Source: Escherichia coli
GTDB lineage: Bacteria > Pseudomonadota > Gammaproteobacteria > Enterobacterales > Enterobacteriaceae
Direction: 5' to 3' (one strand)
NCBI RefSeq assembly: GCF_016903815.1
Contig: NZ_CP069973.1
DNA length: 64,000 bases
Each line of letters opens with the position of its first letter. Position 1 is the first letter of the stretch. The position numbers were made by a program, and so were the translations under genes. Positions 59,998-63,460 of the stretch are shown piece after piece. A model generated the notes under the pieces. It saw only the letters and a program-made list of their open reading frames with translations. It did no database searches and had not been told where the DNA came from.

Positions 59998-60610
59998 ACC
60001 ACTAGTTAAAACCAGTAACTCAGCAGAGTCGCAAAAAATATTAATCCATAGTGATTATTTAAACAATGAAATTGCGATTAGGATAAATAGATTTAACTTT
60101 CTCGTTCCTTTCTCTCCTTATACTAAAGAAATAATCATATCAAAATAAAAATTCACAACAGTGCAACATTAAAAAATACAACCAACAAACAATCCTATAT
60201 ACAAGGCACATCTCCAGAATATAAAAGCACAGACAAACAACCTAAAAAAAACAACCCCATACATATAAATTATTTTATAGGTAAAATAGATTATATATTC
60301 TCATAGCTACCACAAACTATACTAGCCTGAACTATATTTATTCTGCTGCAATCAATGCATACATAACACAAATATCACTCAGGTACACTACTCAAACCAC
60401 GCTGGGATTTTTCCTCAAGTTATAATCATCACCCCGAAAATCATTCGGCATTTACTCATTAAATAGTCACCCCATAGGCCTGTACATGTTTACTCAGAAA
60501 TATACATCCTTTTCTCTGTCATAAACCCTCTGATTAATCATAAATAAATACTTGTGACACCAATCTTTTTCCTTAACGGAACGAATTGTTGTGTAGAAGG
60601 AGATAATATT

Positions 60611-63460
60611 ATGTCAAAAAAAATATCAGCCATTGCTTATAACTCATTATATGTCAACATGGGTCACTATAACGGAAGCAGTTGAGATCACTACCAAAGC
60701 CATAAAACAAAAAATTACTCCTAGCGATATTTATCGTCATGCCTTGAGTGGCAACATCCTACTATCGGTCTATTTCCAGTCTCCTGTGATACTTAAGAAG
60801 ATACAAACTTTTAATGGAAAAATAAAATTCAGGCAGTTTGTGGGAGACCTACTTGATAAACTATGCATGCTTGACAGGGACGGTTTTATTTATGGTCAAA
60901 ATTTAAGACTCTGTACAGAAGCTAGATATATTTGTCCTGTGCAACAAATTATAGATACCCCCCTGTTACGCAAACTCAACCAGTTTCGTACGTTTGTTCG
61001 TAATGTCCGCCCGGGTGATGAACTGGATGTCCCGGCACAAGTTAGTGAAAAAAATTTAACCCCGCCGCCGGGTAACAGCAGTGGCAACCTTGAGCAACAG
61101 ATAGCCAGTACTTCACAGCTAATTGGATCTCTGCTCGCCGAAGATATGAACAGCGAGCAAGCGGCAAACATAGCACGTGGATGGGCCTCTTCTCAGGCTT
61201 CAGGGGTAATGACAGACTGGTTAAGCCGCTTCGGTACCGCAAGAATCACGCTGGGCGTGGATGAAGATTTCAGCCTGAAGAACTCCCGTGACGGCAACCC
61301 TCGAAAATGGCGATTCGATGCAACAAACAGTGAACTATGTGCCGAACGTCACGAATGCTGAAATCACGCTGGCAGCCTCGAAGGACCCGGTGATTGCCGA
61401 CAATAACGATCTCACGACACTAACAGCACCGTCGCTGATACAGAGGGCAATGCGATAGCCAACACTGAGGTAACATTTACTCTACCGGAAGATGTGAAGG
61501 CGAACTTCACGCTGAGCGATGACGACAAAGCGGTTACTGATGCCGATGGCAAAGCGAAAGTCACGCTGTAAGGTACAAAAGCAGGCGCTCATACCGTGAC
61601 AGCATCGATGGTTGGCGGTAAGAGTGAGCAGTTGGTGGTGAACTTTACTGCGGATACGCTCACTGCGCAGGTTAATCTTAACGTTACCGAGGACAATTTC
61701 ATCGCCAATAACATTGGAATGACCAGGCTACAGGCAACAGTGACTGATGGAAACGGCAACCCAGTAGAAGGTATAAAAGTTAATTTCCGTGGAACCTCCG
61801 TCACGCTAAGCAGCACCAGCGTTGAAACGGATGATCAGGTTTTCGCTGAAATTCTTGTGACAAGCACCGAGGTCGGACTAAAAACAGTTTCAGCCTCTCT
61901 GGCAGATAAACCTACTGAAGTCATCTCGCGATTACTGAATGCCAAGGTAGATGTTAATTCTGCGACGATTACCAGTCAGGAGATACCTGAAGGTCAGGTC
62001 ATGGTCGCACAAGACATAGCAGTTAAAGCTCACGTTAACGACCAGTTTGGCAACCCGGTGACGCATCAACCCGCGACATTCAGTGCAGCGCCATCCTCGC
62101 AAATGATCATCAGCCAGAATACGGTCTCTACTAATACGCAGGGAGTAGCCGAGGTCACCATGACGCCTGAAAGAAACGGCTCGTATACTGTAAAAGCATC
62201 CCTAGCGAATGGAGCTTCACTTGAGAAACAACTGGAGGCTATTGATGAAAAACTGACACTCACGTCCAGTCCGCTTATCGGTGTCAATGCTCCTAAAGGC
62301 GCTACTCTGACGGCAATGCTAACCTCTGCAAATGGCACTCCAGTGGAGGGTCAGGTCATCAACTTTAGCGTAACGCTAGAAGGTGCGACGTTAAGTGGCG
62401 GAAAAGTGAGAACCAACTCTTCAGGTCAGGCTCCAGTCGTTCTGACCAGCAATAAAGTCGGTACATATACGGTGACTGCATCGTTCCATAACGGCGTCAC
62501 AATACAGACACAGACAACCGTGAAGGTTACTGGCAACCCAAGCACCGCACATGTTGCTAGCTTTATCGCTGAACCGTCGACTATCGCCGCCACCAACAGT
62601 GATTTAAGTACCTTAAAGGCAACGGTTGAGGATGGCAGTGGTAACCTGATCGAAGGTCTCACTGTGTACTTCGCCTTAAAAAACGGCTCCACCACATTAA
62701 CGTCATTAACAGCGGTGACCGATCAAAACGGAATCGCGACAACAAGCGTGAAAGGAGCGATAACGGGGAGCGTCACTGTAAGCACAGTCACAAGCGCAGG
62801 TGGAATGCAAACAGTAGATATATCGCTAGTGGCAGGCCCAGCAGACGCCTCGCAGTCCATCCTTAAGAACAACCAGTCATCACTGAAAGGGGACTTTACC
62901 GATAGTGCTGAGCTACATCTTGTTCTGCACGATATATCAGGCAATCCGATCAAAGTTTCTGAAGGGATGGAATTTGTGCAATCAGGTACAAACGTGCCCT
63001 ATATGAAAATTAGCGCAATTGATTACACTCAAAATATCAACGGTGATTACAAAGCTACTGTTACAGGAGGCGGAGAGGGTATCGCAACGCTGATCCCCGT
63101 ATTGAATGGTGTTCATCAGGCGGGCCTGAGTACCACGATAGAATTCATTAGCGCGGAAACCAGACCAATGACCGGTACAGTGTCAGTGAATGGTGCAAAC
63201 CTACCGACAGCTTCATTCCCTTCGCAGGGATTTACCGGGGCGTATTATCAGTTGAATAATGACAACTTTGCACCAGGAAAAACGGCGGCTGATTATTCGT
63301 TTCAAACTCGGCCTCTTGGGTAGGCGTTGATGCTACTGGTAAAGTGACATTCAAAAATGACGGTGATAGCAATACTGTAATAATCACAGCGCCCCCAAGA
63401 TCCGGTGGTGCTATTTACCAAACAGTTCCGCATGAATCGCGTTCGGTGTGACTATGATCA
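60611..63460 (+). pseudogene. yeeJ: decayed inverse-autotransporter (intimin/invasin-like) adhesin gene, yeeJ-like, with multiple lesions
   Basis: ATG 60611 with AAGGAG RBS hits a stop after 24 codons. An overlapping frame carries a LysM-like segment (LRKLNQFRTF...DELDVPAQV...GWASSQASG). An out-of-frame deletion junction lies near 61285, a TAA nonsense codon at 61568-61570 and frameshifts near 61435 and 63290. The 61596-63323 ORF encodes tandem Big_1-type repeats. Assignment to yeeJ is from memory. Confidence 0.6.

Follow-up and report, generated by a model that had tools for sequence, protein, structure and literature searches.

The yersiniabactin island (HPI) is a major extraintestinal virulence determinant of Escherichia coli. 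The passages of Schubert et al. (2009, PMC2606025) that deal with its common E. coli form describe an island inserted at asnT that has lost the right 17-bp repeat and the adjacent backbone; the deletion at the fyuA border is thus already on record, and base-level breakpoints are not given in these passages. The structure of the ICE-type relative from Klebsiella pneumoniae, ICEKp, has been reported, together with the derivation of the HPI of the Yersinia pseudotuberculosis complex from it (Lam et al., 2018, PMC6202445). In HPI variants, the iron-uptake region is followed by an "AT-rich sequence" (Paauw et al., 2010, PMC2801613), and a truncated yeeJ has been linked to HPI insertion at asnT (Martinez-Gil et al., 2017, PMC5595812).

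Our analysis of 64 kb of E. coli DNA (contig NZ_CP069973.1; hereafter the window) concerned the interval 59998-60965, downstream of fyuA. With a probability of about 93%, this interval represents the right arm, in truncated form, of the immobilised HPI common in E. coli, where ICE DNA has been fused by deletion to a broken yeeJ. The locus does not differ in kind from the deleted island in the passages of Schubert et al. (2009). The deletion being known, what is added here are its breakpoints, the identity of the truncated ICE gene, an in-frame ORF308::yeeJ chimera, a 207-bp deletion and an A7/A8 polymorphism. The left end and the cargo comprise the following features.

29784-29860, plus strand: asnT (tRNA-Asn) with the 17-bp att core, attL of the island (ARAGORN, pattern search, comparison with K-12)
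57938-59959, plus strand: fyuA, yersiniabactin receptor gene, final gene of the ybt cargo module (ORF list, RefSeq annotation of identical loci)
59964-59998, plus strand: fyuA terminator hairpin with a perfect 15-bp stem and a GAAAA loop (folding)

Several features place the island among HPIs. First, the tRNA-Asn gene (29784-29859 by ARAGORN) carries at its 3' end the left att core (29844-29860), homology to K-12 stops at 29863, and remnants of a P4-like int follow (30024-30906), with about 350 nt deleted internally and the frame changed. Second, large ORFs occupy 31130-57807 and fyuA comes last; in near-identical loci, RefSeq identifies ybtT, ybtE and fyuA. The fyuA terminator is real: its fold has a dG of -24.8 kcal/mol (z = -7.6), and the A-run and the U-run both lie within the stem; the position of the U-run is why the promoter/terminator consensus scan missed it. 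It was assigned to fyuA because homology of the fyuA region to the diverged ybt locus of Salmonella diarizonae extends to 59992.

Third, the right end is missing. The repeat CCAGTCAGAGGAGCCAA was found once in the window, in asnT, when up to three mismatches were allowed on both strands, so that its absence after fyuA, as proposed in the initial annotation, holds. The weak resemblance that had been placed near 60015 actually starts at 60012 and is indeed poor, with 7/17 matches in register. The best ungapped match in 59960-61400 reaches 10/17, a score equalled or exceeded at about 395 positions of the window and hence due to chance. The 17 bases of the weak resemblance are also found at the equivalent site in ICEKp and in the intact ICE-type island of E. 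coli. The true right 17-bp repeat of the E. coli ICE-type comparator lies 27.7 kb beyond the fyuA stop and adjoins ldtA; going by the gene order of K-12, we regard this site as the asnV locus. Lacking the right direct repeat and having a deletion into the adjoining backbone, the window agrees with the common deleted E. coli HPI.

The comparator, the HPI of E. coli 2-331, which we take to be ICEEc1-like, aligns with window positions 59900-60257 and 60244-60971 at 98.8-98.9%. Its fyuA-to-xis stretch, including the full 870-bp spacer, is carried by ICEKp at 99.5%. The fyuA terminator, the AT-rich spacer and codons 1-118 of a 308-codon gene, ORF308, are common to the window and to ICE-type islands (ICEEc1 of ECOR31, ICEKp), whereas the intact ICEs go on with ORF308 codons 119-308, AlpA/xis, DUF2857, TraR, Hha, a VirB-type T4SS, mobBC, cargo and attR. 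The missing right arm amounts to about 26.5 kb in strain 2-331, and no other comparator right-arm sequence was found in the window. Of the components of a functional ICE (attL/attR, intact int, xis, T4SS and mobBC), the window lacks attR, xis, T4SS and mobBC, and its int is deleted internally. As attR and xis are absent and int is damaged, the island cannot excise or self-transfer, the deletion explaining its immobility; its spread would therefore proceed by homologous recombination of flanking DNA, as argued in the relevant passages of Schubert et al. (2009).

The interval consists wholly of island DNA, namely the spacer and then the first third of a gene of the ICE backbone. The spacer has two features.

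59999-60610, plus strand: spacer, rich in AT and poor in G, that separates the ICE backbone from the ybt cargo (alignment with ICE-type and ICEKp islands, composition)
60241-60257, plus strand: scar left by the loss of 207 bp from the spacer (alignment with the ICE-type comparator, locus coordinates 4357-4563)

The roughly 600 bp after fyuA had been described as very AT-rich with an A+C bias of the top strand, and the computed composition confirms this and proves to be the most extreme of the 64 kb. Over 59960-60610 (651 bp), GC is 31.5%, G 10.6% and C 20.9%; in the core (60030-60420), G falls to 8.7% and A+C reaches 63.7%, with G:C = 34:81 (binomial p = 1.4e-5) and A:T = 168:108 (p = 4e-4). 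No other stretch of the window has GC of 33% or less, and nowhere in it is G scarcer or the excess of A+C, whichever strand is read, more pronounced than in the spacer. The spacer shares 98.8% identity with its counterpart in the ICE-type HPI of E. coli and is colinear with that of ICEKp, the intact fyuA-ORF308 spacer being 870 bp long vs. 651 bp in the window. By alignment, the spacer is read as a relic of this 870-bp spacer; its high AT and low G content were already present in the ICE and did not arise through the deletion. In the intact element the spacer presumably is the regulatory or leader region of ORF308-xis.

Whether the A+C bias could mark a functional non-coding element still working in the truncated island (a G-poor RNA leader, an sRNA or a protein-binding array) was also considered. 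The extremity of the bias and its presence in the spacers of both intact forms speak for such an element, as do the long, low-GC spacers before ORF308 homologues in Sodalis, Salmonella and Yersinia sp., although these are less strongly G-depleted. However, an Rfam search of the spacer gave no match at E ≤ 1, the consensus scan detected no sigma-70-like promoter upstream of ORF308, and promoter-like sites were fewer than expected from shuffled sequences. Conservation with a Salmonella relative is confined to about 60 bp beside the ribosome-binding site. Moreover, the E. coli spacer has lost 207 bp, contains an A-run of variable length and shows the highest SNP density of the locus (0.0245 polymorphisms per bp, compared with 0.0197 in the ORF remnant and 0.0074 in fyuA, for 10 sequences), and it tolerates an IS66 insertion, as it does cargo insertions in other elements (PMC6202445). 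A working element is therefore unlikely, and the spacer DNA of the truncated island appears to be a relic evolving at about the neutral rate.

The scar of the 207-bp deletion sits between imperfect direct repeats (A7-8 C[A/C]ACCC), and the A-run there varies from A3 to A8 between strains. The 207-bp segment is single-copy wherever it occurs, which is in the 175 ICE-type genomes and ICEKp only; for this reason it was rejected as a mobile element. Its presence in both intact forms, together with the flanking repeats, points to deletion as the polarity of the indel. A minus-strand ORF (60169-60264) encoding a hydrophobic product of 31 residues was weighed as a possible small toxin but discarded, as its start spans the scar and the intact ICE version differs (58 aa, TTG start); its hydrophobicity follows from the G+T-rich bottom strand.

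The segment was found in 2255 of the 5426 complete E. coli genomes, adjoining fyuA in all matches listed, and in none of the HPI-negative genomes among them, sensitive blastn included. The whole architecture of 59900-61400 (at least 80% coverage, spanning both junctions) is present in about 2060 of the 5426, and the intact ORF308-AlpA form in 175-178. All ten sampled strains align across the island-chromosome junction without an indel there; the breakpoint is thus shared, as in a common deleted HPI of single origin, and provides a clean marker of that origin. The region around this junction contains the following features.

60597-60613, plus strand: Shine-Dalgarno AAGGAG (60597-60602) and ATG (60611-60613) of ORF308, matching exactly the beginning of the annotated 308-aa gene of intact ICEs
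60611-60965, plus strand: ORF308 remnant, codons 1-118 of 308, with a predicted MerR-like winged-helix N-terminal domain
60616-60623, plus strand: A8 homopolymer, +1 frameshift (alignments; annotated products of 249 aa vs. 236 aa)
60651-61361, plus strand: fusion ORF as annotated by RefSeq in A8 strains (236 aa, "inverse autotransporter beta domain-containing protein")
60965-60966, no strand: island-chromosome deletion junction (three-way alignment of the window, the ICE-type island and K-12; frame calculation and translation)
60966-61287, plus strand: yeeJ fragment 1 (K-12 yeeJ nt 277-607), second half of the LysM domain and start of the beta-barrel, 92.8% identical to K-12
61288-63408, plus strand: additional pieces of yeeJ (nt 4301-4775 and 5058-6734), carrying frameshifts and internal deletions (blastn against K-12; RefSeq pseudogene)

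ICE homology ends and K-12 yeeJ homology begins at the same base, G60965, which implies 1 bp of microhomology. The suggestion of an island-chromosome junction created by deletion was correct, except that the junction is located not within the AT-rich DNA but at the 3' edge of the interval; the end coordinate chosen earlier, 60965, is the exact island/yeeJ breakpoint. Codon 118 of ORF308 is joined in frame to codon 93 of yeeJ. The chromosome has lost 588 bp at the junction (K-12 locus coordinates 233-820), comprising the asnT-yeeJ intergenic/promoter region and yeeJ codons 1-92; as the retained part starts at codon 93, it is devoid of the signal peptide and of half of the LysM domain. Compared with K-12, the window keeps yeeJ nt 276-607, 4301-4775 and 5058-6734 at 92-95% identity and lacks, besides the 588 bp, about 4.3 kb of internal sequence. 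With three further deletions and frameshifts, the gene is a RefSeq pseudogene; native upstream DNA, signal peptide, LysM, full barrel and Ig-like passenger in one frame, as in an intact yeeJ locus, are not found here. A family 9 glycosyltransferase gene comes after yeeJ, as in K-12.

The other reading offered in the initial annotation, an H-NS-silenced adhesin promoter, would make the segment the native upstream region of a yeeJ-like adhesin allele whose 5' end departs from that of K-12. At 68.5% AT, the segment has the kind of composition usual for H-NS-bound DNA in E. coli; it ends in a good ribosome-binding site and ATG, and RefSeq names the downstream ORF after an inverse autotransporter. 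However, a search at word size 7 detected nothing homologous in the K-12 asnT-yeeJ intergenic region or at the yeeJ 5' end, nor was the segment colinear with the intact yeeJ upstream region in the K-12 alignment. Among the matches listed from the 5426 genomes, the segment never occurs without fyuA, and its colinearity with the ICE-type fyuA-ORF308 spacer extends to ICEKp, where there is no yeeJ nearby. The ribosome-binding site and ATG are those of ORF308, an ICE gene, and the native yeeJ promoter has been deleted together with the first 92 codons. A literature search found no H-NS ChIP data for the region. As to origin, the adhesin-promoter reading is already refuted and retains next to no credibility.

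ORF308 is the first gene of the excision/conjugation backbone in intact ICE-type islands. Its homologues stand directly upstream of AlpA/xis and conjugation genes in five of six relatives (two Salmonella, two Sodalis and one Yersinia sp.), each time preceded by a 410-480-bp low-GC spacer, whereas at the Dickeya locus RHS genes come next instead; the exact ORF308 sequence shows the same gene order, ahead of AlpA/xis and conjugation genes, in 10 further loci. An exact-pattern scan of species-representative genomes with the 23-mer around the ORF308 ribosome-binding site and ATG gave no match, and a scan with a degenerate fyuA 3'-end pattern retrieved no Yersinia locus; it matched four diverged ybt loci and nothing else (Serratia symbiotica, K. 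michiganensis, K. oxytoca and S. enterica diarizonae), and in each of them homology breaks off at either the stop codon of fyuA or its terminator. For Yersinia, the comparison draws on Lam et al. (2018, PMC6202445) and on one protein named "Yersinia pestis" by NCBI, for which the only encoding contig found was 1.6 kb long. A locus with an IS21-family element after TraR was tried as a Yersinia-type right end and rejected, since no 17-bp repeat is present.

From the observed homologies, breakpoints, frame and population frequency, we infer the following order of events. An element of the ICEKp/ICEEc1 type would have integrated at asnT, with the ancestral order int, ybt cargo, fyuA, 870-bp AT-rich spacer, ORF308, xis (AlpA), DUF2857, TraR, Hha, T4SS, mobBC and attR. 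A single illegitimate deletion at the 1-bp microhomology would then have removed everything from ORF308 codon 119 through attR and, in the same event, the 588 bp of chromosome with the asnT-yeeJ intergenic region and yeeJ codons 1-92. Left behind would be fyuA, its terminator, the spacer and the 118 ORF308 codons fused in frame to yeeJ codon 93. Later, the 207-bp deletion between short A/C-rich repeats would have shortened the spacer and, in the lineage of the window, a slip from A7 to A8 would have frameshifted the chimera. In addition to the immobilisation of the island, yeeJ is inactivated. The base-level anatomy leaves current understanding unchanged and is of use in annotation and in typing, where it tells deleted-type from ICE-type HPIs.

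The well-placed ribosome-binding site and ATG at 60611, with the ORF frameshifted at once, were as previously noted: the intact ORF308 has A7 where the window has A8, and A7 is also present in all eight more distant deleted-type E. coli. In A7 strains the chimera is 249 aa long from ATG 60611. The fusion product gives a Pfam IAT_beta match; the RefSeq "inverse autotransporter beta domain-containing protein" at this locus is the product of a chimeric pseudogene, its first 118 codons coming from an ICE gene.

The chimera could be imagined as an expressed new gene that selection maintains and that phase-varies by slippage in the A7/A8 tract. In its favour, the two parts are joined in frame, the 249-aa ORF and the native strong ribosome-binding site are intact in 8/8 more distant strains sampled, over 1000 contigs are catalogued with the product, the 118 retained codons span the predicted winged-helix domain, and the homopolymer lies at codons 2-5. 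Against this, the ratio of nonsynonymous to synonymous changes in the chimera is about 10:4, near the neutral expectation, vs. 6:9 in fyuA (10 strains, 14 coding polymorphisms, a small sample), S52, a near-invariant position of the family, is changed, and polymorphism density is 2.7 times that of fyuA. An in-frame join is expected by chance in 1/3 of cases, the ORF terminates in out-of-frame yeeJ sequence after a second deletion, and A8 is, in the sample, fixed in a very large clade and not scattered. An intact ORF needs no selection, because the entry of the island into E. coli and its spread are recent according to the relevant part of PMC2606025. A selected, switched gene is accordingly highly improbable, and, to judge from sequence, the fusion product is probably a non-functional chimera. 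Also remote is the broader idea that ORF308(1-118)::YeeJ(93-), intact in many E. coli lineages, might be an expressed, DNA-binding, A7/A8-switched neo-gene or that the spacer might be a regulatory RNA or an H-NS nucleation site affecting fyuA/ybt. The chimera joins the predicted DNA-binding-like N-terminal domain of ORF308 to a LysM/barrel fragment of YeeJ.

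When 5426 complete E. coli genomes were searched by megablast with 59900-61400 as the query, 2060 of them covered at least 80% of it. In K-12-like genomes the match starts at 60965, inside the inverse-autotransporter adhesin gene yeeJ, with nothing earlier; in another class, to which strain 2-331 with its intact ICE-type high-pathogenicity island (HPI; locus L003) belongs, it stops at about 60971. Some genomes otherwise 100% identical to the window there carry an IS1 insertion inside the queried interval, namely E. coli O121 201805972 (H1) and strain VL40 (H31), both aligned in two pieces with an IS1 transposase annotated. 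Pairwise blastn gave the following correspondences:

Window 59900-60257: L003 4001-4356 (ICE type), 98.9% identity
Window 60244-60971: L003 4564-5290 (ICE type), 98.8% identity
Window 60965-61287: K-12 yeeJ nt 276-607, 92.8% identity

The comparator's entire fyuA-to-xis stretch is also present in K. pneumoniae ICEKp (99.5%). By sensitive blastn, 60000-60960 was found in 2255 genomes, adjoining fyuA in all of the matches listed, and in none of the HPI-negative E. coli genomes; comparison with the K-12 asnT-yeeJ region at word size 7 yielded chance matches only. Since the segment is confined to the fyuA neighbourhood and lacks homology to this region, 59998-60965 is, as judged by alignment, island DNA and not yeeJ upstream DNA, and its initial reading as an adhesin promoter was wrong as to origin. 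The deleted type accounts for about 38% of current E. coli genomes and the ICE type for about 3%.

The alternative initially proposed, an island-chromosome junction created by a deletion, proved correct, the junction forming the 3' boundary of the interval. In a three-way alignment of the window, the ICE type and K-12, ICE homology runs to ...ATACCCCCCTG, with 60965 as its last base, and K-12 yeeJ homology begins with GTTACGCAAACTC, with 60965 as its first; the breakpoint is thus between 60965 and 60966, one G being common to both sides. The island side ends at the final base of codon 118 of a 308-aa ICE gene, here called ORF308, the chromosomal side continues into yeeJ codon 93, and the fusion is in frame. 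The ICE has lost everything from codon 119 of the 308 in ORF308 through attR (about 26.5 kb in strain 2-331), and no further ICE right-arm sequence was found elsewhere in the window. The chromosomal loss is 588 bp, comprising all 313 bp between asnT and yeeJ as well as yeeJ nt 1-275; with it went the yeeJ promoter region, the signal peptide and the N-terminal half of the LysM domain.

In strain 2-331, whose island is an ICE-type HPI resembling ICEEc1 described for ECOR31, fyuA is followed by ORF308, an AlpA-family gene (xis), DUF2857, TraR/DksA, an Hha remnant, a VirB-type type IV secretion system (T4SS), a coupling protein and mobC, ArdC and a restriction system, and finally the 17-bp repeat adjoining ldtA-cobTSU, a site which we take to be the asnV locus from K-12 gene order. 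The Hha/YmoA-family gene is annotated there as a partial pseudogene (L003 7373-7522; also L004 10094-10216), and in Salmonella relatives the copy is intact (71 aa).

The right-border repeat is indeed missing from the window. A search of both strands with up to three mismatches allowed gave a single copy of the 17-bp att core CCAGTCAGAGGAGCCAA in the 64 kb. The weak resemblance noticed earlier does exist, starting at 60012, but only 7/17 positions agree in register, and its bases are found also in intact islands. The top ungapped match within 59960-61400 (10/17) is attributable to chance, as about 395 window positions score as well. The true attR of the E. coli comparator is 27.7 kb further on. 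The features concerned are:

29784-29859: tRNA-Asn
29844-29860: sole att core
59959: end of fyuA (ORF list)
59964-59998: perfect hairpin after fyuA, 15-bp stem, dG -24.8 kcal/mol, z = -7.6
60597-60602: AAGGAG

Base composition is extreme in the 612 bp between the hairpin and the ATG at 60611. Composition and strand-skew calculations agreed with the AT-rich, A+C-biased stretch of about 600 bp described initially: GC is 31.5% and G 10.6% in the intergenic region 59960-60610, versus 53.6% GC in the window, and the core 60030-60420 has G 8.7%, A+C 63.7% and G:C 34:81 (p = 1.4e-5). Within the 64 kb, only this stretch reaches GC <= 33%, and it is the window minimum in G fraction and maximum in strand asymmetry (either strand).

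The spacer is 651 bp long, versus 870 bp in the ICE type. The absent 207 bp (L003 4357-4563) are bordered by imperfect repeats A7CAACCC and A8CCACCCC. This segment is single-copy in each genome and limited to 175 ICE-type E. coli and ICEKp, for which reason it was probably deleted from the common E. coli form; a mobile insertion was rejected on the same distribution. The A-run at the scar (60241-60248) differs in length, between A3 and A8, across ten strains. Both the ribosome-binding site and start codon noted at the end of the segment and the immediate frameshift were confirmed: AAGGAG precedes the ATG at 60611, and the ORF stops after 24 codons, with A8 at 60616-60623 (chimera codons 2-5) versus A7 in intact ORF308. 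This run is A7 or A8 among E. coli strains; A7 and an unbroken chimeric ORF were found in all eight of the more distant strains of the deleted type, the ORF being 249 aa long in seven and 252 aa in E11 (9-nt insertion). In A8 strains the annotated product has 236 aa, and this exact protein is recorded on >1000 contigs; RefSeq labels the chimera as an inverse-autotransporter protein.

Compared with K-12, yeeJ has lost three further segments beyond the junction (window 61287-63428):

yeeJ nt 608-4300
yeeJ about nt 4776-5057, between repeated Ig-like domains, 30-bp overlap
yeeJ nt 6735 to about 110 bp beyond the stop

The P4-like integrase gene (30024-30906) is deleted internally:

30024-30143: integrase residues 1-40
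30148-30906: integrase residues 160-411, in a different frame

This agrees with the intB allele with "bp 124-470 deleted" (Paauw et al., 2010; PMC2801613), and by this deletion the island has lost int function in addition to xis and attR.

ORF308 (L003 4931-5857; homologues in loci L012-L017) is a conserved gene with 344 homologues of about 308 aa spread over Enterobacterales. No Pfam or NCBIfam model was found for it, and its AF2 model (pLDDT 77) shows a weakly MerR-like winged-helix N-terminus and no other similarity. In five of six relatives (two Salmonella, two Sodalis, one Yersinia sp.) the homologue is directly 5' of AlpA, DUF2857, TraR and T4SS genes, with an integrase or cargo upstream across a spacer of 410-480 bp that is lower in GC and mildly depleted in G; the sixth, from Dickeya, has a 1020-bp spacer and RHS-repeat genes after the homologue. 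The exact ORF308 sequence is followed by the AlpA/T4SS gene order in 10 further loci. In diverged ybt loci homology to the window ends at the fyuA stop or terminator, and in K. pneumoniae ybt plasmids (H98, H99) at about 60102, approximately 143 bp beyond the fyuA stop, where the spacer is broken at another point. The spacer is thus the boundary of ybt cargo and ICE backbone. [quoted passage not shown] We infer that in the intact element it is a regulatory or leader region of ORF308-xis; an Rfam search of the spacer gave no match, and a promoter scan no site upstream of ORF308.

The HPI right-end deletion is already known from the literature. Schubert et al. (2009; PMC2606025) describe the deletion and argue that the island is fixed and spreads via homologous recombination; the iron-uptake region in all HPI variants is "followed by an AT-rich sequence" (Paauw et al., 2010); truncated yeeJ has been tied to HPI insertion at asnT (Martinez-Gil et al., 2017; PMC5595812); and Lam et al. 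(2018) give the ICEKp organisation and derive the Y. pseudotuberculosis-complex HPI, which kept xis, from ICEKp. The present analysis adds the breakpoint to the base and shows which ICE gene is truncated; it also adds the in-frame chimera with its RefSeq label, the secondary deletion of 207 bp, both length-variable A-runs, and frequencies in current genomes.

SNP densities per bp in ten deleted-type strains, a small sample, were:

fyuA: 0.0074
Spacer: 0.0245
ORF308 remnant: 0.0197
yeeJ fragment 1: 0.0186

Nonsynonymous to synonymous changes in these strains were about 10:4 in the chimera versus 6:9 in fyuA; those in the chimera included S52L at a position otherwise nearly invariant in the family. 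In this small sample, the polymorphism of chimera and spacer fits neutral decay. Among the compared loci, CP125156.1 (L009) is listed in PLSDB as "Klebsiella pneumoniae strain 176 plasmid unnamed2"; with a length of 5.37 Mb and a chromosomal ICEKp, it seems to be a chromosome that was wrongly labelled a plasmid.
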